40,357 nucleotides of DNA, from the NCBI GenBank assembly GCA_035438225.1, contig DAORHY010000001.1, positions 1 through 40,357 on the forward strand, read 5' to 3'. Positions 7,337 to 38,325 of the stretch are shown here, one piece after another. A model generated the notes under the pieces. It was not told the origin of the DNA. It did not search any database and was given only the letters and a program-made list of their open reading frames with translations. Source of the stretch: Bacteroidia bacterium. Lineage in GTDB: Bacteria > Bacteroidota > Bacteroidia > AKYH767-A > 2013-40CM-41-45. Both the position numbers and the translations under genes were made by a program. Within the stretch, counting starts at the first letter, position 1. Each line of letters starts with the position of its first letter.

Positions 7337-8314
7337 TCAGTAACTCAGAATAACGCTGTTCGAAGTTCCGTTCACTGTCCATGAAACCCTGTACCCGTAA
7401 GCACATGCATAAGGTGTCGGATTGCCATTTTGATCGAGGCCCAGGCTCAGCGTAAAGTCTGCATTGTTGAGATGATGTACCAATTCGCCGGAATTAAATC
7501 TCCACAGCCCGCAATAGGTATTGGAAACAATCGGGGAGTTGTAATAGGTTGTGAAATTCTCGCCGAATCTGTTTACACCCCAGCTGTCGACATTGTTGAA
7601 TCCGTTCAGTGTAGTATCCCCCTTCGCGGTAAACAGGATGTGTGCATACGGAATGTTTGGATTTGTGGAAGCCTGAACATAATTCCATTCTGTTGTACGC
7701 GCACTGTTCCAGGTAGCGCTCAGGTTATTATCAAACGTAACCGCAATATTCAAGGCGCGTTCCTGGTATTTCAGTGTGGAGGTACTCAGAAGAAATCCAA
7801 TCCAGTTATTGCCATTGATGTTTTTTAATGTTTTCACGCCATTGAACGTGATCGATTTGTTATCACTCAGCCGTGTCACCTTGAAGTTCGTGTAGGTGAG
7901 CGTAAGAACCGATCCCACATCGCTCCAGTGAACCCCGGAAGTCAGCTGAACTTTAATCTGCCCGGAACGGGTTCTGGACGGAGAGAAACAAGGAGTCACT
8001 CCGTCAAAATTATAGAACAGTATTTTGTTTGCGATCTGCGAAGAATCGATGACGACTCCGCACAAAGGACTTGACAACACGGCTGCACCCTGGGCAACTC
8101 TGCCAAAAGCAGGAATGTCACTGAGCGAACTGTTGATGTCATTATCTGCCTGGTCCGATTCGGATTTGTAATTATTTGCATCTGAATTAAACTGCGACAC
8201 TTTCGCATCGAGTTGTGCCTGCTCTGTTTCAGAATCATTATTTTTTTTACAGGCACTCAACATTAAAATGCCGGCTCCTGCAAAAATTATCAATGCAATC
8301 AACCTGGTTTTCAT
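7337..8314 (-). CDS. Hypothetical lipoprotein
   Basis: The ORF-track frame is 7337..8407. The internal ATG at 8314 gives MKTRLIALIIFAGAGILMLSAC, a signal peptide with a lipobox Cys. I recognise no family. Confidence 0.6.
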   Translation of the reverse strand: MKTRLIALIIFAGAGILMLSACKKNNDSETEQAQLDAKVSQFNSDANNYKSESDQADNDINSSLSDIPAFGRVAQGAAVLSSPLCGVVIDSSQIANKILFYNFDGVTPCFSPSRTRSGQIKVQLTSGVHWSDVGSVLTLTYTNFKVTRLSDNKSITFNGVKTLKNINGNNWIGFLLSTSTLKYQERALNIAVTFDNNLSATWNSARTTEWNYVQASTNPNIPYAHILFTAKGDTTLNGFNNVDSWGVNRFGENFTTYYNSPIVSNTYCGLWRFNSGELVHHLNNADFTLSLGLDQNGNPTPYACAYGYRVSWTVNGTSNSVILSY

Positions 8315-12989: not shown

Positions 12990-13064
12990 AAAAAAAAGCG
13001 ACTTGCGCCGCTTTAGATGTTTTCACAACGGAATAATCCTTATTGTGATTTGCTTCAAAATGTA
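12990..13064 (-). ncRNA. tracrRNA: tracrRNA of the type II-C system (about 75 nt)
   Basis: The minus strand reads ACAUUUUGAAGCAAAUCACAA, an anti-repeat complementary to nt 2-23 of the minus-strand repeat with one bulged U. It continues UAAGGAUUAUUCCGUUGUGA, which is nexus-like (compare SpCas9 AAGGCUAGUCCGUU). It ends in a GCGGC-GCAA-GUCGC hairpin plus U8 (12990-13011). Confidence 0.8.
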
Positions 13065-13067
13065 AAA

Positions 13068-13075
13068 CAAAAATA
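13068..13075 (-). promoter_or_regulatory. -7 promoter box (TATTTTTG) of the tracrRNA
   Basis: The minus strand reads TATTTTTG, matching TAnnTTTG, 4 nt upstream of the first anti-repeat base. A TTG lies 19 nt further upstream (GTTG-N19-TATTTTTG). Confidence 0.45.
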
Positions 13076-13114: not shown

Positions 13115-16100
13115 ATGAAAAAAATATTAGGACTCGATCTCGGTTCCACTTCAATTGGATGGGCGCTGATTAATGAACCAGAAACCGAAAAAGAAGTTTT
13201 TCAAATTGTAGGAATGGGTGTGCGTATAATTCCTTTAAGCAAGGATGAAAACGATGAATTTACAAAAGGAAACGCTATCTCAAAAAATGCCAGCCGAACA
13301 TTCAAGCGGGGTGCAAGAAGAGGAATGCAGCGATATAAATTAAGAAAGGAAGCACTTGTTAAGATTCTTCAGTCTTTACAAATGATGCCTGATGCCGATC
13401 ATTTCAATCTTTCTGCTTTGAACCTCTACAGTTTACGTGATCGCGGCCTTCATGACCAACTATCGCTCAAGGAAATTGGAAGAATTCTTTTCCACTTAAA
13501 TCAAAAACGCGGCTACAAGAGCAACAGAAAAGCAAATAATGATGAAGTTGAAGGAAAGGCCGAGAAAGATTCTCCGGAACCAGAAATCGATGATAATGCT
13601 AAGAGTAAAGTGTCTAAAAAACCGGGTTATCTCGACCAAATCAACAACAGAGAAAACCTGATTGAAAAAGAGAACTTGACAATTGGTCAATACTTTTATT
13701 CTGAACTCAAAAAAGATCCATATTTCCGTATTAAGGAGAACATTTTTATGCGGAAAAGTTATGAGAATGAATTTGATAAGATTTGGATAAAGCAGCAGGA
13801 ATTTTATCCTTCCATACTTACAGATGAAATTAAAGATAAAATAAAAAATGAAATAATTTACTATCAACGACCCCTAAAATCTCAAAAGGGTCTTGTTTCC
13901 TACTGTGAATTTGAAAGAAAAATCTATTTTGACAAAACAAGTACTCCGATAAAAGAAATTAAAGGAGGACCGAAAGTTACCCCAAAAAGTTCTCCACTTT
14001 TTCAGGTTGCTAAAATCTGGCAGGAATTGAACAACATTGAAATTACAAGTTTCAAAGCAATTAAAAATTCCAATCAAACACCCGAATCCGGTTTTAATGA
14101 AGAAGGAAAACGTTCCCTAACATTGGACGAAAAAAAGCACATATTCGAAAAGCTAAATTTTGGCGATAAAATCACACCGAAAGAAATTCTTACCCTTCTT
14201 GGTTACAAATCAGGATACAATGAATACAAGATCAATTTGAGGAATGAGAAATTCATGGAAGGGAATCGTACCCTTGCAGCCATCAAAAAGGTTTTTGACA
14301 AACATGATGAAAATTATAATGAATTCCTCCATTTTGATCTTCAAATTGAACAATCCAATAGAGTTGATCCGGAAACCGGTGAATTATTTCCGGCCGTTAA
14401 TTGTAACTTTGAAAAGGAACCGCTCTATAAATTGTGGCATATTCTCTATTCAATTGACGATAACTCCGATGTTATCAAAACCCTGACTCAAAAGTGGAAC
14501 ATGAGTTTAAAGGTTGCCACAGATCTTGCAAAATTGGATTTTCAAAAATCAGGATATGGAAATATGAGTGCCAAAGCGCTCAGGAACATTCTGCCTCACC
14601 TTATGAATGGCTTCCAATACCCGAAGGCATGTGAAATGGCTGGATACAATCATAGCAACAGTAGAACCAAAATTGAAAACCAAATCAGGCCACTCCTTGA
14701 AAAGATAAAACTGTATGAAAAAAATAGTCTACGGCAACCAGTTGTTGAAAAAGTGATTAACCAGGTAATTAACCTTATAAATGACCTGATCGATGAAAAA
14801 ACCGGACTAATCTCCGGTGAGGAGAGGAATGCAAAAGATAAGTTTGAAATACGGGTTGAATTGGCAAGGGATTTAAGACAAAGTGCTGAAGAAAGAAATA
14901 AAGCCTTCAAATCAATTACTGATGCGGACAAAAAACACAAAGCCATTGTGGAGGAACTAATTCCAATAATCAGTTCCGTGAGTAAAAGGGACATAGAAAA
15001 GTATAAACTCTGGAAAGAATTTGAAGGTATCTCACCCTATGAACCTTCAAAAGTTATTGGCTTAAGAGAACTTTTTAATAAAAACGATGGAGTCATTTAT
15101 GACATCGAACATATTATACCAAAATCCAGGCTTTTCGATGATTCCTTTTCAAATAAAACAATTTGCCCACGGCATTTGAATTCCGGTTCGAAAGGTAAAA
15201 ATCAAAATACCGCTTTCGATTTTATGAAGCTGCAAGGCGATGATATACTGAATAATTATGTAGAAGTGGTAAAGAAACATCTGTATAAAAAAGATGGAAT
15301 TTCTAAAAGTAAATTCAATAAATTAATGATGCAGGGCGACAAAATCCCAGAAGACTTCATTAATCGTCAAATGCAGGAAACTCGTTTCATTTCCAAAGAA
15401 GTCAGAAGTTTATTGGAGCAGGTTTCCAGAAATGTATATGCTACTACCGGTTCAGTAACTGCAAAACTGCGGGATCTATGGGGTTGGAATGACATCCTCA
15501 TGAATCTCCAAATTGAAAAGTATCGTGCAGCCGGCCAGGTAGAGTTAAAAGAATTTACCAGAGATGGACAAATTCATCAAGTTGAAAGAATAAAAGATTG
15601 GTCAAAACGAGAGGACCATAGACATCATGCAATTGATGCATTGACAGTTGCATGTACAAAACAAGCTCATATTCAAAAAATGAATACATTAAACTCACAG
15701 CACACCCGTGACGAAATGTATAATGCTGTTGGAAACAATGGGTATGAACGTAAGTTGAATATTCTTGAAAAGTACCTGGTCTCTCAACGTCCATTTTCTA
15801 CTGACCAGGTATCAAAAGAAGCAGCCAAAATTCTGATCTCTTATAAAGCGGGGAAAAGATTGTTTTCTAAATCAAAGAACAAAATCAGAGTAAAAAACGG
15901 GAACAAGATTCAAATTACTTTAACGCCAAGGGGATTTCTTCACAAAGAAACTGTTTACGGTGAAATTAAACAATTCGAGAAAGCAAAATTAAATCCCCGC
16001 TTCACACGATTTGACGACATCGCGGACCCAAACCAGGGTTCTCTTGTAAAACAACATCTGAACAATTTTAATGGTGATCCCAAAAAAGCCTTTGGTAGCA

Positions 16101-16987
16101 AAGGATTGGCTCAATTTGAGTCGCAATATCATTTTACAGATGTAACTGTTTTCAGCAATGAATCTGTTGTGAAGTACAATTTGAATAAAGACTTCAAGGA
16201 AAAAGACATTGAATCCATCGTCGACAAAGGCATTCAAAAAAAGGTTCGGGAACATCTCTCAATGCACGGAAACAATCCCAAAGTCGCCTTTAGTGCTGAA
16301 CATCCCGTGTGGTTTAACAAGGAGAAAAAGATTCAGATTAAGTCTGTCCGCTGTAAAACCGGAAACGATAATTTACAAAATCTTCACCGGGATGCTAATG
16401 GACGAAAGATTGATTTTGTTTCAACAAGTAACAATCACCACATAGCAATATACAAAGATGCATCGGGCAAACTTCAGGAAAATGCCGTAACCTTCTGGGA
16501 TGCTTTTGAACGCAAGAAAAATGGCCTACCTGCTATCATCAAAAATCCAAAAGAAACCTGGGATACTGTTCTAACAAACGGCTTAGACAATCAGGTTTTA
16601 CTTTCCAATCTTCCAAAAGAAGACTGGACATTCATTACTTCCCTAGAACAAAATGACATGTTTGTGTTTGGAATGACAATGAATGAAATTCAAAATGCAA
16701 TTGAAAAGCAAGAATATGAGCCGATTAGCGAGCATTTGTACCGAGTTCAAAAACTATCAGAGCTATACTATGTTTTTAGATTCCACATTGAAACAAAAGT
16801 TGATGACAAATTTGATGGAAGTAAAAACGAAAAAGTGTCTATGGAACTTGGAAAAATGAAACGCATCACAAGTCTTGGCACAATGAATGGAATAAAAGTG
16901 AAAATAAACAAATTGGGTAAATTAACTCTGGAAGATAATCAACAAGGAATAGTAAATAAAATACTGGTGCAGGAAAGTACGTCTTGA
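13115..16987 (+). CDS. cas9: Cas9, type II-C (1290 aa)
   Basis: RuvC-I is MKKILGLDLGSTSIGWALI and the Arg-rich bridge helix is RTFKRGARRGMQRYKLRK. RuvC-II is IRVELARDL. The HNH domain is YDIEHIIPKSRLFDDSFSNKTICPRHLNSGSKGKNQNTAFDF and RuvC-III is HRHHAIDAL. cas1-cas2 and the array follow directly. Confidence 0.95.
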   Translation: MKKILGLDLGSTSIGWALINEPETEKEVFQIVGMGVRIIPLSKDENDEFTKGNAISKNASRTFKRGARRGMQRYKLRKEALVKILQSLQMMPDADHFNLSALNLYSLRDRGLHDQLSLKEIGRILFHLNQKRGYKSNRKANNDEVEGKAEKDSPEPEIDDNAKSKVSKKPGYLDQINNRENLIEKENLTIGQYFYSELKKDPYFRIKENIFMRKSYENEFDKIWIKQQEFYPSILTDEIKDKIKNEIIYYQRPLKSQKGLVSYCEFERKIYFDKTSTPIKEIKGGPKVTPKSSPLFQVAKIWQELNNIEITSFKAIKNSNQTPESGFNEEGKRSLTLDEKKHIFEKLNFGDKITPKEILTLLGYKSGYNEYKINLRNEKFMEGNRTLAAIKKVFDKHDENYNEFLHFDLQIEQSNRVDPETGELFPAVNCNFEKEPLYKLWHILYSIDDNSDVIKTLTQKWNMSLKVATDLAKLDFQKSGYGNMSAKALRNILPHLMNGFQYPKACEMAGYNHSNSRTKIENQIRPLLEKIKLYEKNSLRQPVVEKVINQVINLINDLIDEKTGLISGEERNAKDKFEIRVELARDLRQSAEERNKAFKSITDADKKHKAIVEELIPIISSVSKRDIEKYKLWKEFEGISPYEPSKVIGLRELFNKNDGVIYDIEHIIPKSRLFDDSFSNKTICPRHLNSGSKGKNQNTAFDFMKLQGDDILNNYVEVVKKHLYKKDGISKSKFNKLMMQGDKIPEDFINRQMQETRFISKEVRSLLEQVSRNVYATTGSVTAKLRDLWGWNDILMNLQIEKYRAAGQVELKEFTRDGQIHQVERIKDWSKREDHRHHAIDALTVACTKQAHIQKMNTLNSQHTRDEMYNAVGNNGYERKLNILEKYLVSQRPFSTDQVSKEAAKILISYKAGKRLFSKSKNKIRVKNGNKIQITLTPRGFLHKETVYGEIKQFEKAKLNPRFTRFDDIADPNQGSLVKQHLNNFNGDPKKAFGSKGLAQFESQYHFTDVTVFSNESVVKYNLNKDFKEKDIESIVDKGIQKKVREHLSMHGNNPKVAFSAEHPVWFNKEKKIQIKSVRCKTGNDNLQNLHRDANGRKIDFVSTSNNHHIAIYKDASGKLQENAVTFWDAFERKKNGLPAIIKNPKETWDTVLTNGLDNQVLLSNLPKEDWTFITSLEQNDMFVFGMTMNEIQNAIEKQEYEPISEHLYRVQKLSELYYVFRFHIETKVDDKFDGSKNEKVSMELGKMKRITSLGTMNGIKVKINKLGKLTLEDNQQGIVNKILVQESTS

Positions 16988-17008: not shown

Positions 17009-18282
<1,274 letters not shown>

Positions 18283-18450: not shown

Positions 18451-19342
18451 GTTGTTCAGTCTTATGTCAAAGATACATTTTGAAAGCAAATCACAACTTC
18501 TAACCGCCCACTCGTTGCTTGAATCCGTTGTTCAGTCTTATGTCAAAGATACATTTTGAAAGCAAATCACAACCAATCAAATATTGAATATCCGGATTCT
18601 TTTGTTGTTCAGTCTTATGTCAAAGATACATTTTGAAAGCAAATCACAACCCGAAACATCGTTTCCCAATACAAGATCAAGTTGTTCAGTCTTATGTCAA
18701 AGATACATTTTGAAAGCAAATCACAACCTGCGAAAATGTCAAACCATCTTGTCGGTGTTGTTCAGTCTTATGTCAAAGATACATTTTGAAAGCAAATCAC
18801 AACAAGGTGAGTAGCTCATCTGCCATGATGAAAGTTGTTCAGTCTTATGTCAAAGATACATTTTGAAAGCAAATCACAACCCATGGATCTGAATTGTTTT
18901 TTAAAAGTCGGTTGTTCAGTCTTATGTCAAAGATACATTTTGAAAGCAAATCACAACCAGTGAAGGTTTCCGGATTACTCTCTGAGAGTTGTTCAGTCTT
19001 ATGTCAAAGATACATTTTGAAAGCAAATCACAACTCCGATTTGCCTCAAAGGCCTCCCGTCTGCGTTGTTCAGTCTTATGTCAAAGATACATTTTGAAAG
19101 CAAATCACAACTGCCGGTGGCTCATCATCAGATTGATGATGGTTGTTCAGTCTTATGTCAAAGATACATTTTGAAAGCAAATCACAACCTCGAATAAATT
19201 GAACATTTTGCTTTGAAAGTTGTTCAGTCTTATGTCAAAGATACATTTTGAAAGCAAATCACAACTTCAATTGTTGCGAATGTTTTCATATCGTTGTTGT
19301 TCAGTCTTATGTCAAAGATACATTTTGAAAGCAAATCACAAC
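18451..19342 (-). CRISPR. CRISPR array: 12 identical 47-nt repeats and 11 unique spacers (29-30 nt), functionally read from the minus strand
   Basis: The plus-strand repeat is GTTGTTCAGTCTTATGTCAAAGATACATTTTGAAAGCAAATCACAAC. Repeats start at 18451, 18527, 18604, 18681, 18757, 18834, 18911, 18988, 19065, 19142, 19219 and 19296. The minus-strand form GTTGTGATTTGCTTTCAAAATG... is the canonical Bacteroidetes II-C orientation and is the strand complementary to the tracrRNA anti-repeat. Confidence 0.97.
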
Positions 19343-19581
19343 AACCGTTTCAAAGCTTTTCAATCGCGGTAAGTTAATGTTCTCAACTTTATTCGGAGAA
19401 CTGAACCAGCCAGCCGGAAGGCAGGTTTCCACCGTGTACAAATGTATCTGTGAAGCACGGCCCCCAGCTATCGCTAACCTCTTGTGAATGGATGCTCTGC
19501 TGTTCGTTCGAAGACGGATAACCCAAATGTAGCATGCACTTCATCCATAACACTGAGTGTACGTTGCAGAATTTAGTTGCT

Positions 19582-20130
19582 TCATTTTTTCGAAGAATAG
19601 CCGGCTCTATAACCCAATAAATAACTTATTGGTGCAAGTATCAGATAAGTCAAAAGTTGAATCGGCCAGGGAGGATTTACCACACGAATTTCGTCCATAT
19701 GTTTTAACCCCATTAATGGTAACTGCAAAAACGGAGGCATGCCTTTATCACTGAGTTTGGCGTCTTTAGCGAGTGCAAAAAAGGACTCAAAAAATTCGTC
19801 AATATGAAGCGCGGGAGTAAATTGCTGAACAGAGTGCGCTTCTGTATCGTCCTCATTCCAAAAACAATGGGGAGCACCGGCAGGGATAACAATCTTTTCG
19901 CCTGGCCCAACTATTTGTTCCTTGCCATTCACCACGAAATGAAGTCTCCCCGAAATTACTTTAGCAGAACTTTCTTGTTTGGGATGAACATGCATTGGCT
20001 CTCTCATGTCCGATTTAGGATTGAAAGATTCAATTTCCAATAGTTGCCCATTTGTTTCCTTGCCTGTTTGAAGGAAAATCATTTGTTGCCCTGTCCGTAC
20101 GTTTGTGATTTTGTCTCCTTGCTTTGCCAT
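19582..20130 (-). CDS. Cupin-domain protein with C-terminal hydrophobic tail
   Basis: The 182-aa product has a cupin core (EPMHVHPKQESSAKVISGRLHFVVNGKE...GEKIVIPAGAPHCFWN). The C-terminus PWPIQLLTYLILAPISYLLGY is hydrophobic. Confidence 0.7.
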   Translation of the reverse strand: MAKQGDKITNVRTGQQMIFLQTGKETNGQLLEIESFNPKSDMREPMHVHPKQESSAKVISGRLHFVVNGKEQIVGPGEKIVIPAGAPHCFWNEDDTEAHSVQQFTPALHIDEFFESFFALAKDAKLSDKGMPPFLQLPLMGLKHMDEIRVVNPPWPIQLLTYLILAPISYLLGYRAGYSSKK

Positions 20131-20313
20131 TGCTTTTAGGTTATGAAATTTATACGTTTTTACGTCTCAGTTACCGTGTCGAATGCCAGTCACCATTACC
20201 GTTTTGCGACCAACCGCCGTTTAGTGCGATGTCCACCTGCACGTTTGAGTGCAACATGCAAAAAAATGTTGGTTGGTTGCTGTTAGCGGCTCGTTGTTTT
20301 GCCTTGGTTTATG

Positions 20314-20760
20314 TCATTCGTTCAGAGAACGAATGCCTTGATCTTTAAGTTTTGTTAGTGCATCTTTCATAGCTTTCACCTGCTCGTCCGGGTGTCCTTG
20401 CCAAACGGAAACTTCTCCTACAACTTTAAACGGTTGCATCGAACGATAAGATTTTGTCGGATTACCCGGAAATTTTTTGTCTGTCAGGTCGGGGTCGTCT
20501 TCAATTTGTCCGGTTGGTTCTACTAAGTAAATTCTTCCCCGTCCTTCACCAATGGCGAGTTCTGCTCCCCAAATTGCAGCGTCCAATGTTGCGGTCAGGA
20601 AAATATATTTTGCATTTCTTCTTTGTCCAAAATTGGAGTGGTTTCCAGCTTCAATTAAGTCGCCAACTTTAAGGTCTGCTTTTGTCCCGTGAAAATACGT
20701 TTGAGCAAAAGGCGTCGGGCCTTTTCCGAATGATTTTTGTTCGTCTTTGCCCTGTTCCAT
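20314..20760 (-). CDS. arr: NAD+--rifampin ADP-ribosyltransferase (Arr family)
   Basis: The 148-aa product is collinear with Arr-2 as I recall it. Shared blocks are YFHGTKADLKVGDLI, YIFLTATLDAAIWGAELA, GRGRIYLVEPTGQIEDDPDLTDKKFPGNPTKSYRS and VWQGHP. Confidence 0.88.
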   Translation of the reverse strand: MEQGKDEQKSFGKGPTPFAQTYFHGTKADLKVGDLIEAGNHSNFGQRRNAKYIFLTATLDAAIWGAELAIGEGRGRIYLVEPTGQIEDDPDLTDKKFPGNPTKSYRSMQPFKVVGEVSVWQGHPDEQVKAMKDALTKLKDQGIRSLNE

Positions 20761-21303
20761 TTGTAATTATTTATTTCTGAATGATTGTTCGTCTGTCGTC
20801 CAACAATGGCCGTTAACGAAGAAGAGGTTAAAGAAGTAAAATAAACGGTTGGCGGTATGGCCAGTAAGGGATTACGGGCGATTTCCTAACAGGTTCGACA
20901 AAAAGTTGAAGCGAGTTACAATCCTTCGCAAACCATTGAAACCCTTATTGGCTTTCCAGCGTGTTGTCCGCTGTATTTATCGATATTCAGGTGTTTAAAT
21001 TATAATAAGGTTTATTGTCCACGTTACAGTATCGTTTCTTGAAAAAATGCAGCATCAAGGACACAAGGACAGATAGTAGCTATCTCACACAATAACTGGA
21101 TTCCATCAGCCGCAAAATGAAAAATACCTTATCCTACAGCACTACTGGTGAAAATAAAATTGGGAATCCAACGTTTTTCAGCCAATTCGATATCCATGAG
21201 TCAATAAGAATTAAATATTTTGTTAAACCTGGTTTACAAAGTCCATGACTTTAATGTTGTCTGTTTCTTCAATTTGCCCGGTTCAGTTCATGATAATACG
21301 AAT

Positions 21304-21714
21304 TTATAAAGAATAATCACCAGCTGCTTCCGGTTGATAAATAATTTCATCAATCCGAATATTTGTAAGACCCGCAGGAACAATCCATTCTATTTCATCA
21401 GCAACTTTATATCCAATCAGTGCTGTCGCAATTGGTGAAAAAATTGAAATTTTATTTTCCTTTAAATTTGCCTGGTCCGGATACACTATCTGAAATTGTA
21501 CCTGCTTATTGTTATTCAAAAAACTCAATTTTACAATTGAATTCATTGTAACAACATTTGAGGGTATAGCTTCAGGCTCCACAATCTCGGCAGAATCCAA
21601 TTCTTTAATTAATTTTTCAGCTTCTGCGTTGCTAATTGATTTAAATTGCTTCGCATCGCTAATGGACTTTTTTATGCGTGCGTAATCAAGTCGGTTAATA
21701 ATTATCCTTTTCAT
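21304..21714 (-). CDS. rnk: GreA/GreB-family regulator, Rnk-like (nucleoside diphosphate kinase regulator type)
   Basis: The 136-aa product has a short N-terminal helix (LDYARIKKSI...AEKLIKELDSAEIV). Its C-terminal Gre-type FKBP-like domain reads VTMNSIVKL...IFSPIATALIGYKVADEIEW. Confidence 0.75.
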   Translation of the reverse strand: MKRIIINRLDYARIKKSISDAKQFKSISNAEAEKLIKELDSAEIVEPEAIPSNVVTMNSIVKLSFLNNNKQVQFQIVYPDQANLKENKISIFSPIATALIGYKVADEIEWIVPAGLTNIRIDEIIYQPEAAGDYSL

Positions 21715-21740
21715 AATTAGTAATTTATAAAATATTCATT

Positions 21741-21748
21741 CAAAGATA
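21741..21748 (-). promoter_or_regulatory. -7 promoter box (TATCTTTG) of the rnk-like gene
   Basis: The minus strand reads TTGTATCTTTGAATG, ending 27 nt upstream of the ATG at 21714. Confidence 0.45.
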
Positions 21749-21870
21749 CAAGTTTATAAATTGAATAGCTATCAATTAGTTTAGATGGCTCGTCAATACG
21801 AAACAAAACGGTCATCAGCCGAAATTCTTTTTCAGAGCAAGTATCCACGCAACCGCCGGTTCCAATTTTG

Positions 21871-22653
21871 TCATATCGCCTTTCGGGGTTTTGTGGTGAA
21901 CTGTTTAAAGTTTGTCAATTTACTATCCCTGAATGTAAAACGATGCGCGTATTCGGATTCCATATTTTGCGTACTGCCCGTCGGTTTAAAGATCGTATCA
22001 AACAATAAAAGTACATCGTCCCCATCAGCAAAATATTTTACTGGTTCAAATTTTATCACCTGACCTGAAGCTGCTACCTCTTCAAAAAATTTAGTAACCC
22101 CGGCCTTCCCCTCAAATACAACAGGGTTTTTAATAAATGGGTTATCTCTGACATCCCAGGCAATGTTTTCATCACACGCATCAAGAATTCCATCGATATT
22201 TCTCTTTTTAAAATTATTATATATCCCTAAAACAAGATGGGTAGCGGGATTGGTTATGGCACTATAACCTATTTGGTAAAATAGTTCATTCGGATTAGTT
22301 GGCCTGCGTGATAGAAATTTGCCCGAAGCATCGAAATGAATGACTTCGATGGTGTTGATATTAATTTTTTTACCAGACGGAGGCAGAAAGCCCAGCACTT
22401 TTCCTGTATTGGTGCCTGTGGTCGTTGTTTCCACAAATACCCGACTCCCATCCACTGTAATGCCATTGACCTGAATGCTCAGGTCGGGAAACATTTCATT
22501 GTATGTTTTATATGAAATGATAGCCGGGTCAGAACTTTTGAAAGCCGGTCCCCCGGCTGAATAATCAACAAACTCCGGAGCACAGAGGCCTTTAAATGTT
22601 TCATAGTCACCTTTGCTTAGACTTTCATAAGCGAGTGTTACATTATTTTTCAT
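21871..22653 (-). CDS. Tandem SnoaL/NTF2-like protein (ester-cyclase-like N half, ketosteroid-isomerase-like C half)
   Basis: The 260-aa product has an N half YESLSKGDYETFKGLCAPEFVDYS...VFVETTTTGTNTGK...NINTIEVIHF. The C half is IYNNFKKRNIDGILDACDENIAWDV...YAHRFTFRDSKLTNFKQF. The family is assigned from the motif pattern only. Confidence 0.6.
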   Translation of the reverse strand: MKNNVTLAYESLSKGDYETFKGLCAPEFVDYSAGGPAFKSSDPAIISYKTYNEMFPDLSIQVNGITVDGSRVFVETTTTGTNTGKVLGFLPPSGKKININTIEVIHFDASGKFLSRRPTNPNELFYQIGYSAITNPATHLVLGIYNNFKKRNIDGILDACDENIAWDVRDNPFIKNPVVFEGKAGVTKFFEEVAASGQVIKFEPVKYFADGDDVLLLFDTIFKPTGSTQNMESEYAHRFTFRDSKLTNFKQFTTKPRKAI

Positions 22654-22807
22654 ATTTCTGCTTTTGGATTGCCGGCAAGATCACGCGGGAGGAATTTCAA
22701 GCTAAGAACTAAACAGTGTACTAATTTCTTCCTCATTTGTTTATCCTGTATTTCATGTATGATGTCGTAAACTGACGGGCAACTATAGTTGAATTAAAAC
22801 CACAAGC

Positions 22808-22953
22808 ATGGCACACAACGAAGAAGGGTTTAAAGAAGTAAAAAAAGAAGGGTTTAGATGCATCCCGCTCGAGCGGGATTCGTTTACCCACAATGTTTGT
22901 TAGAAGCACAACTGTTTGTTTACCTCTCAAAGCCCTTCTTTTTTAATTTCTTT
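22808..22953. repeat. Nested palindromic element
   Basis: The outer arms are AAAGAAGTAAAAAAAGAAGGGTTT (22832-22855) and AAAGCCCTTCTTTTTTAATTTCTTT (22929-22953). They enclose a perfect 18-nt palindrome, ATCCCGCTCGAGCGGGAT (22862-22879). The left end overlaps a mini-ORF motif also found at 20806-20844. Confidence 0.55.
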
Positions 22954-23007
22954 CCATCTTGATGTTATTGGCAGTTTTTCTTTCGTCTGTTGTGGTTACA
23001 AATTTAT

Positions 23008-23796
23008 TTAATTGCAAGGTTGCTCTTCCAGTTTGCCATAAATGTTTCCGTCAAAATCTTTCTGGTCATTGCCATATTCAAGTCTGATTATTTTGCCACA
23101 ATTTACTTGTATAACGAATGCAAAATCTTCCATTGACGCAGACATGTTACCTTTCCCATTCGTTATATGGTCAAGATAACCTGGTAGAGAATTTTTTAAA
23201 GGTTCAATATTATCTCCAACTTTGAATTCAGGAATTGTTTGTCTGATAATTTTAGTTCTTACTTCATCAGTCGTAAAACGAAACATCGCAGCAAGAGCAA
23301 TAGTCGGCAGCAACCATAAATATATAAAGAGAAAGATTGCTGGAGATAGAAAAAAAATGATTTTTATAGAAGGTCGTTTGAATAATAAGTCAACCAATTT
23401 GTCCGACTTTATCAGCAGAGAGTAGGTAAGACCGAAAAACAATCCTATTAAAGTTGCCAAAGGCAGGAACATAATGACCAAGTCAAAACTGCGGAAAATT
23501 CCACCGACTAAGATTGAATATGCCAATGCACCGTAAATTGCTGTGATTAAAAGAAAAATTTTGGGTTTGAATATCTCTCTTGAATGGTCAAGTCTGTTAA
23601 GAGGATAAATAATAAAAGTAGCCCAAGCAAGTGTAATAAAAAGTCCAGACCAATACATTACTACACCGCTGTCGTCTGCATTCCCGTCTTTCCAAACAAG
23701 ATAAATGGAATAAAGTATACTTGTGAGTGCCCACGCAGTTATCATTGAGAAAAAACTCAATGTTTGCTTTACACTATTTAGTTTCGGAGTTGTCAC
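23008..23796 (-). CDS. Hypothetical polytopic membrane protein with C-terminal soluble domain
   Basis: The 262-aa product has about 6 hydrophobic helices (FSMITAWALTSILYSIYLV, LFITLAWATFIIYPL, IFLLITAIYGALAYSILVGGIF, VIMFLPLATLIGLFFGLTYSLLI, IIFFLSPAIFLFIYLWLLPTIALAA). I recognise no family. Confidence 0.6.
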   Translation of the reverse strand: MTTPKLNSVKQTLSFFSMITAWALTSILYSIYLVWKDGNADDSGVVMYWSGLFITLAWATFIIYPLNRLDHSREIFKPKIFLLITAIYGALAYSILVGGIFRSFDLVIMFLPLATLIGLFFGLTYSLLIKSDKLVDLLFKRPSIKIIFFLSPAIFLFIYLWLLPTIALAAMFRFTTDEVRTKIIRQTIPEFKVGDNIEPLKNSLPGYLDHITNGKGNMSASMEDFAFVIQVNCGKIIRLEYGNDQKDFDGNIYGKLEEQPCN

Positions 23797-23804
23797 TGTT
23801 TGAG

Positions 23805-23987
23805 TTAGCGATCCAGTTTGTTCGGAGCGTTAAAATTGCCGATAATACCTTCAGTTACACAATATGTTGGTTCAGTATAATTCAAAGATACATTTTGAAT
23901 TAGATCACAACCCGTAGGAGCAGTTGCGCCGCAAACTCTTGGCTGTTCGGATAAATCCCATTGCCTATTCGTCCCATTCCCAACCAT
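23805..23987 (-). CDS. Possible 60-aa small protein, start overlapping the upstream stop (TAATG); may be spurious
   Basis: The ATG at 23987-23985 shares a base with the TAA of the 126-aa gene. The ORF contains the orphan CRISPR-repeat-like sequence, so coding status is doubtful. Confidence 0.2.
   Translation of the reverse strand: MVGNGTNRQWDLSEQPRVCGATAPTGCDLIQNVSLNYTEPTYCVTEGIIGNFNAPNKLDR
23866..23911 (-). repeat. Orphan, degenerate copy of the CRISPR repeat
   Basis: The plus strand reads GTTGGTTCAGTATAATTCAAAGATACATTTTGAATTAGATCACAAC. It shares an uninterrupted 18-nt core (TCAAAGATACATTTTGAA) with the array repeat. It also shares the GTTG(G)TTCAGT start and the identical ATCACAAC end, for roughly 80% identity. 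The orientation matches the array, which ends 4.5 kb away at 19342. Confidence 0.65.
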
Positions 23988-24367
23988 TACTTTCTCTTGT
24001 TGAGTGCAACGATCAATACCGATGACACACTACACATGACCACAGCTGCAACGATGAGTGCATTTTCTTTTTGTGAAATTCCAACAAAGAAGTCGCCAAC
24101 AAACATTACGAAAAAGAAGAGATAAGCAAGGGTCAGCATGGGAACTGATTTTTTGAACGTGGCAAAACCAAAGATAAAACCAAGAGCAAATTGCCGGGCG
24201 GCCCACATGTAAATAATGTAGTTCACGCCTTTGGCAGTAAGGTCAACGGTTTCCAAAACCGATTCCGGCGAAAAGCACAAGGAGAAACTCACGCCCAGTT
24301 CCATGATTGCAAAAAGTCCGGATACAATGAGTATCCATGTGGGTACCGTTTTTTGTTCTTCTTTCAT
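23987..24367 (-). CDS. Small 4-TM membrane protein, hypothetical
   Basis: The 126-aa product has four hydrophobic segments (WILIVSGLFAIMELGVSFSL, YIIYMWAARQFALGFIFGFA, MLTLAYLFFFVMFVGDFFVGI, LIVAAVVMCSVSSVLIVAL). Confidence 0.6.
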   Translation of the reverse strand: MKEEQKTVPTWILIVSGLFAIMELGVSFSLCFSPESVLETVDLTAKGVNYIIYMWAARQFALGFIFGFATFKKSVPMLTLAYLFFFVMFVGDFFVGISQKENALIVAAVVMCSVSSVLIVALNKRK

Positions 24368-27868: not shown

Positions 27869-28327
27869 TTATTTTTCACAAATTTCTTTTAACGTATCGA
27901 GTGCCTTTGGGTAAGTCTGGTTCATATAATCCAGAAAATCTTCGGCGGTGTCTAATTCAACAGTAATGGTTGTAGTTCCGTTGCTTTCTTCGAAGGTGTA
28001 GTTCTCAAATCCATTGGCCCATTTTTCTACCTCCGGTCCATCTGTAATTTCCTTGCCGGCTTGAAAAAGACCATAATGCTGAACCGAAACAAATCGGTTG
28101 GGAACGTTATCAACTATCCTGGATACCATTCCACCCCTTTCTCCCTTCTCGTCTACTCCAATAAACAGCATTTTTGTTCCCTTGTCCCAACTTCCTTCAT
28201 ACGTCGATGTCGGGTTAAACAAAGCAGTCCATTGCTCATATGTCGATTTATTGCTGATGCCAAGCATAGAATCATAAACCCTGCTTACAGGTGCTTTGAT
28301 GCTTACTGTGAATTGTAACTGTTTCAT
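27869..28327 (-). CDS. SRPBCC-superfamily protein (AHSA1-like)
   Basis: The 152-aa product begins MKQLQFTVSIKAPVSRVYDSMLG. It continues W...FENYTFEESNGTTTITVELD, typical of Aha1-domain START-fold proteins. Confidence 0.65.
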   Translation of the reverse strand: MKQLQFTVSIKAPVSRVYDSMLGISNKSTYEQWTALFNPTSTYEGSWDKGTKMLFIGVDEKGERGGMVSRIVDNVPNRFVSVQHYGLFQAGKEITDGPEVEKWANGFENYTFEESNGTTTITVELDTAEDFLDYMNQTYPKALDTLKEICEK

Positions 28328-28444: not shown

Positions 28445-28452
28445 CAAAGATA
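28445..28452 (-). promoter_or_regulatory. -7 promoter box (TATCTTTG) upstream of the 27869..28327 gene
   Basis: The minus strand reads GGTTTGGCGGTAAAATGTATCTTTGGGAGG. It is part of a module of about 55 nt duplicated at 31146-31212. Confidence 0.5.
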
Positions 28453-28550
28453 CATTTTACCGCCAAACCACCACACGGAACGATCCTTCACGCTGCGAAG
28501 AATTTCATTGATCCTGTGCAGCTTTAACATTCTGTACTCCGGGCCCGGTG

Positions 28551-29814: not shown

Positions 29815-31086
29815 TCACTGTTTATTCAGCTCGTCAAACTTTGCTTTCATTGTCGGATTGCCATGAGTTAATTTTTTTATACTTAAATCTTCGGCTTTTT
29901 GATTTGCAAGCCGAAGGTTGTTGTCAGAAGACAATAAAGCGTCTTTGGTTTTTTGCAGGTGGTCAATGGTTTTATCAATTTCTTCAATGGCAGTTTTAAA
30001 TTTACGACTTGCTAATTCATAGTTTCTCGCAAATCCTTCTTTGAAAGTATTTATTTTTTCTTCGAAATCAGTAATGTCTATATTTTGATTCCTTACTAAA
30101 GCAAGTTCTGCTTTATAGCGCATAGAACTCATGGCTGCGTTTCGAAGAAGTGTAATTATCGGAATGAAAAATTGAGGACGCACCACATACATTTTGCTGT
30201 ATTTATGCGATACATCAACAATTCCTGTATTATAGAATTCGCTTTCCGCTTCTAAAAGAGAAACAAGAACAGCGAACTCGCATTTTTTCTCGGTGCGGTC
30301 TTTATCAAGTTCTTTTAAAAAATCTTCATTCCTTTTTTTGGTCGCCGTTTCATCACCCTCATTTTTCATCTCGAACATTATTGAAATGATTTCATTTCCA
30401 GCCTCGTCAGTCTCCCTATAAATAAAATCTCCCTTGCTACCGGATTTTGATTCATTGTCTTTTTCAAAATAGGCTTTTTGAAAAGCTGTTGCACGAAGTT
30501 TGTTAAACTCTGTTTCACAATGTTGTTCAAGTGTTTCGCCTAACATTTTAGTTGATAATTTCAACTTCATATCTTTGCGAAGCGCGATCTCCTCGTCTTT
30601 GTGCTTAATAATGGCGTCTTTTTCCTTTAGTTCAGCAGAGTATTTTTCACTTAATGCCTTTTCAAGAAGTTGTTTTTCTGTGTCTTTTATTTTTACAACA
30701 TTGGCCAAATCATCACGTTCTTTTTCAACTTTTTGGGTAGCTTCTGCAATTGCAAGTTTCCGTTCAACTTCGGCATTGTCAAGTTTCGCTTTCAGTTGTG
30801 TTAACTCAGTTTCTTTATGGGATAATTTTTGGGACAATTCAACATCCTTTTGAGCCGTCAGCTTGGTGAGTTCGTTATCTTTCCTTGCAAATTGTTCATG
30901 CAGGGAATTTCTAACATTGGCTTCTGCTAATTTTACGGCACTCTCTTTTTCGATTTCTGCAAGTGTCAGGCGCTTTAACAATTCTTCTTCAAATTGATGG
31001 TCACGAACTTGTTTTAGAATTTCAGCAAAGCCAGCCTCATCTACATTAAAAGCTTTTTTACAATTAGGACAAATTATTTCGTTCAT
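29815..31086 (-). CDS. DUF2130-type protein: N-terminal zinc ribbon, long coiled coil, C-terminal PD-(D/E)xK-like module (RmuC-like architecture)
   Basis: The N-terminus is [13 protein letters not shown]. About 180 aa of E/K/L-rich heptads follow, then [25 protein letters not shown] (D...E-x-K). The DUF2130 name is from recall. Confidence 0.7.
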
Positions 31087-31173: not shown

Positions 31174-31181
31174 CAAAGATA
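31174..31181 (-). promoter_or_regulatory. -7 promoter box (TATCTTTG) upstream of the DUF2130 gene
   Basis: The minus strand reads GGTTTGGTGGCAAAATGTATCTTTGAGGGG, ending 88 nt upstream of the ATG at 31086. Confidence 0.5.
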
Positions 31182-31369
31182 CATTTTGCCACCAAACCAC
31201 ACCACAGGACCGGACCCTGGATGGCCGGGTATGTGGTGTTTTGTGTCGCTCGACTCCCAAAAGCAGCGGGTTTGCCAGAACATTGAAATAAAGAATCATT
31301 TGGTAAAACTGAAACCCGATCCAAATCAAATGCTACGCACCCCGAAGAGAAGTAAATTGTCGGGAAGCC

Positions 31370-34157: not shown

Positions 34158-35537
34158 CTATTTTTTAATTGTCTTCAAAGTTTCGTTAATCTCCTTCATT
34201 GTGTCTGTTAGTGTTTTACTTCTATAGCCAAAAAAGCTTGTTGGTTTGTCTTTCATCATTGATGGCAAAGAATAAATTGTAGAAACTGCTTGTAAAATCA
34301 GGTCTTCTTTTTTCGAACCAGAAATGTCACCATACGCTTGAACTGTCAAGGCAATAGCAGAACGAAAAGCATATTCTTCTTGAAAAGTCCTTTCTCTCAC
34401 ATATTGTTTAATGGTAAAGAATAGTACTATCATTATCGGTGTTGATTTCAAAGAATTAATTACGAGAAACTGCCAATCAATTGTTTGGGGCATTGGCATT
34501 GCTGTAATCAATCCAAAGAAGTTTGTAAATATTCCAATTATTAATAACAATGCCGCAACACCAGTTCCAATTACAATCAAGGCCCAACGTTTTACTGGAG
34601 CTTCTAAATCTTTTTTTCTGTCGTTGAAAGTATTGAAAAGTCGCACTGCTCCTTCTTTCCCAATCAATTCATTTAAGACTAAAATTTGTTTATCAAATGT
34701 TTTACTCTGTTCTAAAACAGAAGCAAGCATTTTGTCAAATTCAACATTTTTCTTTGAACCGTTTTCAATTTCAGTAGTGAATAACTCTTTTAATTCTTTG
34801 ATGTCCTTTTGGAATGCAGTATAAACAGTTTTCTCTTCCTCAATTTTTTTAGTAATTGTGTCAAGATTTGTATTCTGTTGAGTTAAAAGACCGTTTATTG
34901 ATTCATTCGTAGCGGTACTTGTATTCAGAAGTCTGTTTATTTCTTCCGAGTTATTTCTTGCTGTCGGTAATAAGCCTTCAATCTCTGCTAGTTCTTTCTT
35001 TTTAGTTGCAACGAGTAATTCAAGATTTTCCTTTTCTGTTTTCAGAGATTCAAGAAGCGTTTTATTTGTTTCAATATTTTTGGCAAGGTGCTCGGAAATT
35101 AGCCTCAGTTTGCTTTCCATTTCTGTAATTTGAGCAAAACGCTTTTTGTCATCTCTCTCTAAAACCTTGTCCCAAAAACCATTTGCAACTTGATAGTAAA
35201 CCAAACGAGTTAAAACATTTACTGCTTCTGCGAAATTGTTTGCTTCTAGGTATGCATTTAAATTGGCTAAATCATCACCTAAATTACCATTGCCAAAATC
35301 ATTTTGAAATTGATATTGAAACGGAAGAATATTTGAAAATGGAGTTTCAAGAACTTGCCCCAACTGCGAAATAACCTTTTTAGAGTATTGCGACAATTCG
35401 CTTACGGTGTAATAGCCAACAGCAATGCTTGAAAGGTCTGTGTAGTCCTTATAAACTTCTGCAATACGTTTGTCAATTTCTAATTTCCAAAACGGCTCTA
35501 ATTGGGCTAATACTCTTTGTTTTTGTTCTTGATTCAT
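34158..35537 (-). CDS. Uncharacterised coiled-coil protein with C-terminal 2-TM module; fourth gene of the type I R-M operon
   Basis: The 459-aa gene starts 14 nt after the hsdS stop on the same strand. The N-terminal helical domain is about 135 aa, followed by about 170 aa of E/K/L/N/T heptads. The hydrophobic segments are WALIVIGTGVAALLLIIGIFTNFFGLITAM and WQFLVINSLKSTPIMIVLFFTI (nt 34407-34586). The tail is an amphipathic RERTFQEEYAFRSAIALTVQAY. I recognise no family. Confidence 0.7.
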   Translation of the reverse strand: MNQEQKQRVLAQLEPFWKLEIDKRIAEVYKDYTDLSSIAVGYYTVSELSQYSKKVISQLGQVLETPFSNILPFQYQFQNDFGNGNLGDDLANLNAYLEANNFAEAVNVLTRLVYYQVANGFWDKVLERDDKKRFAQITEMESKLRLISEHLAKNIETNKTLLESLKTEKENLELLVATKKKELAEIEGLLPTARNNSEEINRLLNTSTATNESINGLLTQQNTNLDTITKKIEEEKTVYTAFQKDIKELKELFTTEIENGSKKNVEFDKMLASVLEQSKTFDKQILVLNELIGKEGAVRLFNTFNDRKKDLEAPVKRWALIVIGTGVAALLLIIGIFTNFFGLITAMPMPQTIDWQFLVINSLKSTPIMIVLFFTIKQYVRERTFQEEYAFRSAIALTVQAYGDISGSKKEDLILQAVSTIYSLPSMMKDKPTSFFGYRSKTLTDTMKEINETLKTIKK

Positions 35538-35551
35538 CTTCTTTATTTTAT

Positions 35552-36886
35552 TTAAACTTCAACCGGTTCTTTTCTCAACGCCTCTCTCAAAACCTGTTGC
35601 AGTAATTTTTCTTTTTGTAATTCACTTTGTTTGATGCTTGCTTCCAACTCATTGCAATACTGCATTAATTCATCTAATTTTTGAACGATACGGTTTTGTT
35701 CTGCAATAGGCGGTAGAGGGAAATCAATTTCGCTTAAAATCTTTAAACTTAGAAACGGTTGTAAACCACCTTTTGTAAGCTCTGCATAAATTTCATCTTT
35801 TCTTAAAAGGAAGTAATAGAAAAGCAGCTTATTTAAAATTAGGCTTTGATTGAACTTTAAAATTGCTGTATTCTTAAAACTAAATTCAAAATCAACATCA
35901 ATTATCGCAGGAGTTCCACATCCAGCACCAATATTTACAACTAAAATTTCACCTTTTTGTGGGTATGCTTTTATATATAGCTCTCTATGATATTTTTCAT
36001 CAACGTAATTGCAATTGTCCCAATCAATTTTATCTGACTTAACTTGGGTTGCAGCTATGTATGGAATTCCCTTTGAAACTTTAGGCGGAGTATTATGAAA
36101 GCCATCGGTTATTTTAGTGCAAATTTCTCCTAACCTACACCAAACCCAATTTTCAGGAATGTCAAACGGGATTTCTTCAGGTTTGATGGGTGGTATTTCT
36201 TTTTCCTTTTTGAGTTTCTTTTCTGAAATCAGTTTTTCTTTTTCGGCTTTTATCTTTTTAAGCAATTCGCTTGCTGGTTCGTCTTTGGGGTTTGGCTCTA
36301 CCAATTTGCCTTGCACCGCATCTTGCAACAATTGCTGACGGAGTTTTTTTACTAAGGTGAGTTGGTGGGTAAGTTCGGTGGAGATTTCTATTGAATTATC
36401 TTTTTTACTTGACAATTCTTTTACAATTTCCTCCTGTTCATCAATATCTGGAAATGGAATTTCTATTTCTAGTATTTCTCTTTCGTGAATAGATTTTTGT
36501 GCAGAACCAGTAGTTTGAATTTTGTTTAGTTCATCATAAAAATACGGGGACTTCAAAAGGAATTTCAAATATTCTAAATTGATTCCTTCAACAGAAAACA
36601 TTGGCATATTTTCAGTGGCAATGCATCCATCAACCTCTAACGGAGCTATACCAATTGAACCATCCTGTACACCTTGTCTTACGAACATAAGTGTATTTGG
36701 ATATTTTTTAAGGTCAATTTGAAATTGCCTTTTACGCCCAATTTCTTTACCCATTTTAGTGCCACGAAATGTTACACCATCATATTTTGAAATAGTCACC
36801 TGCTTGTATTCAATATCATTTTGAACTAGGTGCTCAATCCGGTATTGTTTTAAAATTTGCTTCAACTTTACTTTCTTCCAACTCAT
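35552..36886 (-). CDS. hsdS: Type I restriction-modification specificity subunit
   Basis: The 444-aa gene has an ATGA overlap with hsdM. Two target-recognition halves are separated by a K/E-rich central helix (ELLKKIKAEKEKLISEKKLKKEKE). The conserved C-terminal helix is FPLPPIAEQNRIVQKLDELMQYCNELE. Confidence 0.88.
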   Translation of the reverse strand: MSWKKVKLKQILKQYRIEHLVQNDIEYKQVTISKYDGVTFRGTKMGKEIGRKRQFQIDLKKYPNTLMFVRQGVQDGSIGIAPLEVDGCIATENMPMFSVEGINLEYLKFLLKSPYFYDELNKIQTTGSAQKSIHEREILEIEIPFPDIDEQEEIVKELSSKKDNSIEISTELTHQLTLVKKLRQQLLQDAVQGKLVEPNPKDEPASELLKKIKAEKEKLISEKKLKKEKEIPPIKPEEIPFDIPENWVWCRLGEICTKITDGFHNTPPKVSKGIPYIAATQVKSDKIDWDNCNYVDEKYHRELYIKAYPQKGEILVVNIGAGCGTPAIIDVDFEFSFKNTAILKFNQSLILNKLLFYYFLLRKDEIYAELTKGGLQPFLSLKILSEIDFPLPPIAEQNRIVQKLDELMQYCNELEASIKQSELQKEKLLQQVLREALRKEPVEV

Positions 36887-38319: not shown

Positions 38320-38325
38320 TCTTTC

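Follow-up and report, generated by a model that had tools for sequence, protein, structure and literature searches.

The window, by which we mean the whole 40,357-nt stretch of DNA that was analysed, contains a CRISPR-Cas locus, a block of five genes read in one direction and, beyond this block, a solitary degenerate copy of the CRISPR repeat, referred to below as the orphan (Table 1). Since cas9, cas1 and cas2 are present without further cas genes, the locus is of type II-C. The 11 spacers of the array are 29-30 nt each, and the array repeat in crRNA sense is GTTGTGATTTGCTTTCAAAATGTATCTTTGACATAAGACTGAACAAC, which contains a perfect match (TATCTTTG) to the Bacteroidota -7 consensus TAnnTTTG described in PMC10309648. 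The predicted tracrRNA upstream of cas9 has a TAnnTTTG box of its own at 13068-13075, and its anti-repeat pairs in silico with the 5′ half of the reverse-complemented array repeat at -29.0 kcal/mol. From this complementarity, crRNAs would be made from the minus strand, toward cas2. Neighbouring genes include some with a T9SS sorting domain, a feature that indicates Bacteroidota.

Table 1. Coordinates of the genes, repeats and predicted elements of the locus
Feature	Position	Strand	Remarks
Predicted tracrRNA	12990-13064	-	Anti-repeat 13043-13064 (22 nt); terminator hairpin and U8 12990-13014
cas9	13115-16987	+	Pfam RuvC_III/HNH_4
cas1	17009-17941	+	Pfam Cas_Cas1
cas2	17938-18282	+	Pfam CRISPR_Cas2
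Type II-C CRISPR array	18451-19342	-	12 identical 47-nt repeats, transcribed toward cas2
Module separating the block from the oldest repeat of the array	19343-19478	.	136 nt, strain-variable
Five-gene co-directional block (membrane, SnoaL, Rnk-like, Arr, cupin)	19479-23848	-	Putative integron-type cassettes
Cupin gene	19582-20130	-	Pfam
Arr-type rifampin ADP-ribosyltransferase gene	20314-20760	-	Pfam
Rnk/GreA-like gene	21304-21714	-	Pfam
SnoaL-like gene	21871-22653	-	Pfam
attC-like imperfect palindrome after the membrane gene	22810-22971	-	Ends in GTTGTGTGCC
Putative mobile cassette with the membrane gene	22964-23848	-	Inversely complementary ends, 5′ GTATTATCGG and 3′ CCAATAAC
262-aa membrane-protein gene	23008-23796	-	GTG start; without Pfam annotation
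60-aa ORF spanning the orphan	23805-23987	-	ATG overlaps the stop codon of the 126-aa gene
Gap between orphan and cassette	23849-23865	-	17 nt, ATATTGTGTAACTGAAG
Solitary degenerate CRISPR repeat (orphan)	23866-23911	-	crRNA-sense sequence GTTGTGATCTAATTCAAAATGTATCTTTGAATTATACTGAACCAAC
-7 box of the orphan	23883-23890	-	TATCTTTG, fits TAnnTTTG; identical in every array repeat
TTG, candidate -33 element	23908-23910	-	17 nt before the -7 box
Pseudo-spacer	23912-23941	-	30 nt, CAAGAGTTTGCGGCGCAACTGCTCCTACGG; precedes the orphan in crRNA sense
126-aa DUF4267-like membrane gene, upstream of the orphan	23987-24367	-	Weak Pfam match

The polarity of the array follows from a strain contig, L007, which carries at least two additional spacers at the cas2-proximal end. 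This makes the end at 19342 the old one; beyond it comes the orphan, oriented like the array repeats. As described in passages of PMC10309648 (citing Hoikkala 2021 and Zhang 2013), the repeat-embedded promoters of Flavobacterium II-C arrays likewise transcribe toward the variable end. BLAST searches of a phage database with the array and the orphan segment returned chance-level matches only, yielding neither a protospacer nor a PAM, and a scan of 2.9 million viral contigs with the conserved half of the repeat family gave zero exact matches.

A degenerate repeat beyond the old array end

The plus-strand sequence of the orphan is GTTGGTTCAGTATAATTCAAAGATACATTTTGAATTAGATCACAAC. Global alignment with the 47-nt array repeat matched 40 of 48 columns (83%), with five substitutions and three single-base indels, in good agreement with the identity of about 80% given in an earlier sequence-only reading of this DNA. 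That reading had also described an identical core of 18 nt, conservation of both repeat termini and a shared orientation, and all three were seen in the alignment: the longest exact run common to both sequences is TCAAAGATACATTTTGAA (18 nt), the termini GTTG... and ...ATCACAAC are both preserved, and the orphan lies on the same strand as the array at a distance of 4523 nt. Pfam annotation and gene positions bore out the cupin, arr, Rnk, SnoaL and membrane genes that were said to fill these 4.5 kb, and counting gave 12 identical array repeats, as stated. In a semi-global scan of both strands of the window the orphan was the best non-array match (score 14 versus a background of -9.2 ± 4.0), and a profile search with nhmmer recovered it with E = 5e-10. 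An Rfam search returned nothing at gathering thresholds.

A resemblance of this kind might also arise by convergence, with an ordinary host promoter merely looking like the repeat, and the window does offer possible examples. The 15-mer CAAAATGTATCTTTG is found only in the 12 repeats, in the orphan and in two other upstream regions, 28445-28459 and 31174-31188, which carry a core of 14-15 nt and at most 24 of the 28 nt of the repeat's promoter half, and which have no repeat termini. The orphan, however, matches the repeat over its full length, including its non-promoter parts (5′ GTTGTGAT and 3′ ACTGAAC.AAC), and at one position in the 3′ half it has the base of the repeat of a relative, L022, rather than that of the window's own repeat. 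Convergence is scarcely credible on this evidence, and alignment and profile search confirm the orphan as a true relic homologue of the adjacent type II-C repeat, situated past the array's old end. Such a relic is in itself ordinary: degenerate or solitary repeats and repeat-embedded promoters are already known kinds of element.

Comparable copies accompany this repeat family elsewhere. In a relative with a 69%-identical Cas1 (L037-L039), six identical repeats are accompanied by a degenerate copy 55 nt beyond, which matches at about 27 of its first 36 positions in a manual alignment and, in L037, has lost the -7 box. In L043, L049 and L068, the side of the array that is upstream in crRNA sense carries as many as three such copies, degenerate or solitary (two in L043). 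A metagenome scan with the conserved half of the family recovered 85 loci, many of them holding lone copies, and solitary full-length copies were seen in many metagenome contigs; whether such copies are followed by a co-directional gene gave a mixed outcome, with too few independent loci. A first metagenome scan, using a pattern that fits both the array repeat and the orphan, had found nothing in a collection from which the organism is absent. Displaced degenerate copies thus appear to be normal for the family. That the array itself has no degenerate terminal repeat, as the sequence-only reading remarked, is correct as a fact; as a sign of loss it does not serve, and is rather a family trait, the relative with the 69%-identical Cas1 being alike in this respect.

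Two properties of the contigs limit how the arrays of relatives can be read. Logan contigs collapse an array to one repeat (L003, L032), and look-ups of exact proteins gave mostly near-identical strains. Because of the collapse, the single repeat beside cas2 in a relative with a 91%-identical Cas1 (L022-L028) is not readable as an empty array. The cas locus of L022 has a PQQ-propeller gene on its far side, for which reason L022 was checked as a potential circular element; it is not circular.

Probable cassette DNA separating the orphan from the array

The membrane protein encoded next to the orphan has 105 homologues across Bacteroidota, most of them 262 aa long, and their genes share a common layout. 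Upstream conservation starts abruptly about 17-20 nt ahead of the start codon, at GTTATGG; the exact inverse of this motif, CCATAAC, overlaps the stop codon (L012, L019-L021) and is followed by an imperfect palindrome of about 125 nt and then by GTTGTAT or GTTAGCG. An integron gene cassette followed by its attC site is laid out in the same way. Many short-read contigs of these homologues end about 25 nt further upstream, at differing points. The boundaries of the copy in the window were located with L011, in which an 88%-identical copy aligns from GT(A)TTATCGG (23848) to CCRATAAC (22964) and no base further on either side. Upstream of the cassette, the DNA of L001, L011, L019 and L128 differs from the orphan segment, and a scan of a genome collection with the membrane protein produced one relative, 63% identical and with unrelated DNA upstream.

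The attC-like site that follows the membrane gene contains a 27-nt inverted repeat that is 85% complementary. When 22812-22960 was folded as DNA, none of 200 shuffled sequences was as stable (z = -3.4), and an 80%-identical copy of the site is present at a different place in strain L032. Its 3′ arm, TTTTACTTCTTTAA...CTTCTTC|GTT, recurs in the site before arr (20841). The arr unit in turn has a 5′ end, GTTAACGGCC (20817), that finds its near-inverse, GCCGCTAAC, at 20290, together with an inverted repeat. In all, the block has at least two more attC-like junctions after that of the membrane cassette. The attC-like sites of the arr and cupin units folded no better than shuffled sequences, and a home-made attC scan based on R''/R' motifs and arm pairing could not tell the sites from shuffled sequences and was abandoned. 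Strain differences also fall at such sites: the gene content of L032 differs upstream of 29672, where the breakpoint is another attC-like site. L019 likewise displays a clear attC-like palindrome after the ORF. No recombinase domain that would indicate an integron integrase was detected among the larger ORFs of the window, nor was an integrase found in L019 or L128.

At the other end of the block, strain L003 matches the window exactly in the cas operon and the cupin gene, and within 19343-19478 is only about 80% identical, with two deletions. The edge of this divergent patch coincides with the junction at about 19478 (GTTAGCG) that had been predicted from the cupin attC-like hairpin. The unit ends, the inverted repeats and the patch edge in L003 together lead us to read 19479-23848 as inserted cassette DNA, and on these comparisons it is demonstrably mobile and non-native between the orphan and the array. 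The sequence-only reading had, as one possibility, placed an insert at 19343-23865; an inserted block is there, and the flanking segments 19343-19478 and 23849-23865 lie outside it. The mobile-cassette setting is a more interesting by-product of the analysis than the orphan itself.

On its other side the orphan is bordered by the DUF4267-like gene, for which we collected 1778 homologues. Elsewhere, homology ends at the stop codon (23988) and the neighbours are unrelated, as would be the case for an ordinary chromosomal gene, which by these comparisons it is. The orphan thus occupies a private segment of 138 nt (23849-23986) between the end of the DUF4267 homology and the start of the cassette, and on its upstream side, where a preceding cassette would carry an attC site, none was seen. 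The 17 nt that separate it from the cassette, the L011 homology starting only at about 23848, are possibly a spacer remnant or trailer DNA.

Where the orphan stood before the cassettes arrived can be examined by removing the block in silico, after which 153 nt separate orphan and array. The orphan is out of register with the array at either distance, 4523 nt now or 153 nt after removal. No cryptic repeat was detected in the reconstructed 153-nt trailer (p = 0.73), and none in the 19343-19478 module. With 153 nt and no hidden repeat, the orphan is not simply the last repeat in register, and it would already have been a displaced, stand-alone degenerate copy before the insertion. The proposal that an insertion split off the old terminal repeat therefore stands in part: the orphan does lie on the old side, with a boundary of mobile DNA 17 nt away, but not as an in-register last repeat. 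Since none of the strains and relatives compared was seen to be free of the block, the order of insertion is inferred rather than observed.

Possible activities of the orphan

The position of the orphan raises the question of whether it acts as a promoter for the first cassette. Its TTG stands 17 nt before the -7 box, one nucleotide closer than the 18 nt of the array repeat. The membrane gene begins, with GTG, about 87 nt beyond the box; nothing resembling a terminator was found in between, and in other genomes the membrane cassette lacks a conserved upstream region. A promoter reading from the orphan into the membrane cassette is plausible, and a minus-strand transcription start near 23876 is most likely its present activity, as judged from motif and position. 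In strain L008, eight substitutions fall within the 57 nt directly before the core, and both the core and the DNA down to the gene start are free of them. For eight random differences, the probability of a clean run of 18 nt is 0.14, and that of an untouched -7 box is 0.21. Survival of the core is thus not statistically unusual (P about 0.14-0.2). The suggestion that the repeat had been exapted as a promoter is plausible in view of the intact TAnnTTTG box, the co-directional gene and the repeat-embedded promoters of Flavobacterium II-C arrays.

The same numbers are also compatible with an inert relic, that is, a decaying leftover of the old array end without function, in which case transcription of the membrane gene would come through from the DUF4267-like gene or begin elsewhere. 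Such decay would fit the loss of the -7 box from the comparable copy in L037 and the shortening of the -33/-7 spacing to 17 nt, and read-through from the DUF4267-like gene could make an extra promoter needless. However, the orphan has kept a perfect -7 box in the right geometry toward a co-directional cassette that otherwise looks promoterless, and the substitutions in L008 avoid both the core and all DNA downstream of it. We regard an inert relic as possible but doubtful.

The 60-aa ORF that spans the orphan is present as described by the sequence-only reading, overlapping the upstream stop codon. Among 1.84 billion representative sequences its only full-length homologue (92%) is an apparent strain variant, and the next matches cover the repeat-encoded residues, in one 'protein' as many as 30 times over, so that these other matches look like translated CRISPR arrays. 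In L008, five of the six changed codons are non-synonymous. To judge from these comparisons the ORF is not a gene and does not encode a conserved protein. Its conservation as a protein, together with the lack of a transcript start, had been named by that reading as counter-evidence; beyond the one strain variant, no such conservation was found.

We also considered whether the orphan and other degraded repeats once framed the 30-nt pseudo-spacer as a small array. The segment 23942-23984, exactly 30 nt upstream of the orphan, begins with GTTGGGA and ends in CCGAACAGC, and its global score of 0 against a background of -8.3 ± 4.2 corresponds to an empirical p of 0.03. However, nhmmer finds nothing at this segment, and a higher score (3) is reached by the in-register window on the opposite side, whose sequence is shared with L011 and is certainly cassette DNA. 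Scores of this size therefore arise without homology, and the signal at p = 0.03 is not trustworthy. With no second repeat, and with flanking windows indistinguishable from non-homologous DNA, the decayed mini-array put forward by the sequence-only reading is very improbable.

Another conceivable role is that of a regulator resembling a crRNA (scaRNA or crlRNA), in which a transcript from upstream would pair with the tracrRNA, load Cas9 and repress a gene. The partial guide would be the 20-30 nt before the orphan, CTGCTCCTACGG, and the RNA would end in GUUGUGAUCUAAUUCAAAAUGUA. Pairing with the anti-repeat is indeed retained in silico, as the sequence-only reading had supposed, with 8 bp, an internal loop and 11 bp at -20.7 kcal/mol, compared to -7.7 ± 2.3 for shuffled sequences, and solitary units that make regulatory RNAs are known from other CRISPR types (bioRxiv 10.1101/2024.12.27.630466). 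The guide half of the idea fared differently. When the target search called for by that reading was run on the 40-kb window, including the promoter region of cas9 and the tracrRNA, the pseudo-spacer had no seed match of at least 9 nt; 12-nt seeds with up to two mismatches occurred at chance level, all inside genes, and viral contigs gave zero matches. The pseudo-spacer is, moreover, the most variable stretch between strains, and its PAM-proximal 3′ end is exactly where L008 differs. Neither a terminator, a processing signal, a dedicated upstream promoter nor a 3′ end was found for such an RNA. A guide function of this kind is very improbable.

Pairing with the tracrRNA could also serve sequestration, if the orphan were a transcribed solitary repeat on mobile DNA that captures tracrRNA or Cas9 in the manner of the RNA anti-CRISPRs termed Racrs, which are solitary repeat units on mobile elements (PMC10651486). 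Its place at the edge of mobile cassette DNA and the possible pairing would suit such a decoy. However, the L011 comparison puts the orphan outside the cassette, on the host chromosome and beside the host's own cas genes, and the family has no exact match in the 2.9 million viral contigs. In addition, the orphan's own promoter would start after the half that pairs with the tracrRNA, and transcription of that half would need read-through. A decoy is highly improbable and, taking both RNA roles together, the orphan probably gives rise to neither guide-like nor decoy RNA.

Proposed history and relation to known systems

The best overall explanation, to which we assign a probability of about one half, is a relic repeat followed by a later cassette block, with a residual promoter reading into the first cassette. 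In this history, whose origin steps rest on comparative evidence, the orphan would have been located a short way outside the array, past its old, non-acquiring end, which is upstream in the sense of crRNA transcription. Integron-like cassettes (approximately 19479-23848) would then have landed 17 nt downstream of it, moving it 4.5 kb from the array. The retained TTG, spacer and TATCTTTG would now face the start codon of the first cassette, about 87 nt away, so that minus-strand transcription would enter the membrane-protein cassette much as from a cassette promoter.

In a stronger version, the old end of the array would have been a site of recruitment for integron-like cassettes, and the leftover repeat would serve them as an outward promoter like the Pc of integrons; this we consider unlikely. 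The repeat termini GTTGTG...ACAAC resemble the local attC core sites GTTGTGY and RCACAAC (L019 and the window), and recruitment may have been helped by this mimicry. If the Pc-like reading were true, it would join two systems that are not known to interact, and it would add a cassette platform in the Bacteroidota, in which integrons are reported to be rare (PMC9024848).

The locus is a concrete example of an array's non-acquiring end as a landing site for mobile cassettes, among them one with the rifampin-modifying arr, and it bears on how defence islands and platforms for accessory genes grow jointly. Since every repeat of this family contains a promoter, stranded copies are ready-made promoters, and whether they are co-opted for gene expression is a directly testable question. 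Integron-like cassette arrays appear both here and in Chitinophagaceae MAGs, and given the rarity of reported Bacteroidetes integrons they merit a survey.

Among known systems, the block most resembles CALINs, the integron cassette arrays that have no integrase. As in these, accessory genes, arr included, are small and unidirectional, the units have inverse core sites followed by imperfect palindromes, and strains differ by whole units. A further likeness is the single outward promoter ahead of the first unit, for which the candidate here is a CRISPR repeat in place of Pc. The attC-like sites of the block are candidates recognised by their ends and inverted repeats.

The orphan itself is comparable to the degenerate repeats found at the trailer end of arrays, being a mutated copy in the same orientation on the non-acquiring side, as also seen in relatives; it differs in lying 4.5 kb away and in being out of register even without the block. 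Solitary-repeat RNAs such as Francisella scaRNA, crlRNA, CreTA and CreR share with it a lone repeat near a cas locus that pairs with an RNA partner, whereas for the orphan no partial target was found in the 40-kb window, and its spacer-like part is not conserved between strains. Racrs are similar in being solitary repeats that adjoin mobile DNA, and dissimilar in that the orphan lies on the host chromosome, outside the cassette and next to its own cas genes. For the promoter, the closest parallel is with the II-C arrays of Neisseria meningitidis, Flavobacterium columnare and F. psychrophilum, which, in the passages of PMC10309648 that cite them, have a promoter inside each repeat. The orphan is analogous to these repeats in its perfect TAnnTTTG, and unlike them it would read into a protein-coding cassette rather than into a spacer.

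The array margins and the orphan repeat

The 136-nt patch that adjoins the oldest repeat of the array (19343-19478) is only ~80% identical to its counterpart in the strain-variant contig L003 (3239-3370), while the flanks are identical between the strains. Because the divergence is confined in this way, the patch looks, as judged from the sequence comparison, like a separately exchanged module. Within it, at 19440-19453, a sequence in inverted orientation resembles the core of the repeat; it is not conserved in L003. At the other, cas2-proximal end, the array is longer by at least two spacers in one strain contig (L007, 6499-6633), and the repeat that follows the extra spacers is a variant, GTTGTGATTTGATTTCCAAATG..., which could be either a second repeat type or the product of a chimeric assembly.

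The −7 box of the orphan repeat is surrounded by a perfect 9-bp palindrome, TAATTCAAA / TTTGAATTA (23876-23901). This palindrome arises from the orphan's own changes and is absent from the array repeat; a 57-nt fold at this position has a z-score of −2.3.

Core-like sites, the predicted tracrRNA and the wider island

The repeat core CAAAATGTATCTTTG is also present upstream of two further genes, with one mismatch in one of the two sites (table). One of them, site A, matches the promoter half of the repeat at 24/28 nt, and the surroundings of the two sites are alike across ~55 nt, consisting of GTGGTTTGGYGGYAAAATGTATCTTTG followed by a G-rich run. These sites may be repeat-derived, may represent a shared promoter module, or may be kin of attC arms such as GGTTTGGCAAAATG. 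The predicted tracrRNA has no Rfam match. The same run of minus-strand genes has the type I restriction-modification genes at its far end, and the window's entire right half forms an island of defence and accessory genes.

Coordinates of the predicted tracrRNA, core-like sites and restriction-modification genes
Feature	Position	Strand	Details
Predicted tracrRNA	12990-13075	(-)	own TAnnTTTG box at 13068-13075, 22-nt anti-repeat, terminator
Repeat-core site	28445-28459	(-)	upstream of (-) gene 27869-28327
Repeat-core site	31174-31188	(-)	upstream of (-) gene 29815-31086
Type I restriction-modification system	34158-40161	(-)	HsdS, HsdM, HsdR

Cassette-like gene runs

From 19343 to ~31000, and likewise in the Chitinophagaceae loci L019 and L128, small accessory genes all run in one direction and are accompanied by attC-like palindromes and inverse core sites. 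In the window they include arr, two beta-lactamase-fold genes, a cupin gene and a SnoaL gene. No integrase is in view at any of the three loci; integrons have been reported to be rare in Bacteroidetes (PMC9024848). In L128, from a metagenome-assembled genome, the membrane-protein cassette of the window stands at the head of at least 15 such genes, and a tandem array of GGTTATAGGTATAAATGACCCT-like units of ~22 nt (9290-9540) is located immediately upstream of the first cassette in this long cassette-like array.

Repeat copies in metagenome loci

A solitary full-length copy of the array's repeat family is found in the metagenome locus L084 (3312-3358), which recurs in L055, L077, L082, L090, L111, L125 and L127, across several lake metagenomes. 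A small gene in the same direction, DUF4160-like in appearance, lies ~135 nt downstream of this repeat. Genes for an SNF2 helicase and for a GH25 lysozyme are close by, and the retrieved sequence around the repeat contains no cas genes. Another metagenome locus, L059, carries two repeat copies 7.8 kb apart (289-319 and 8101-8128), whose upstream flanks are duplicated. The genes between them all run in the same direction as the repeats and include one for a zeta-toxin-like protein and one for a protein with a T9SS tail, a layout that parallels that of the window.
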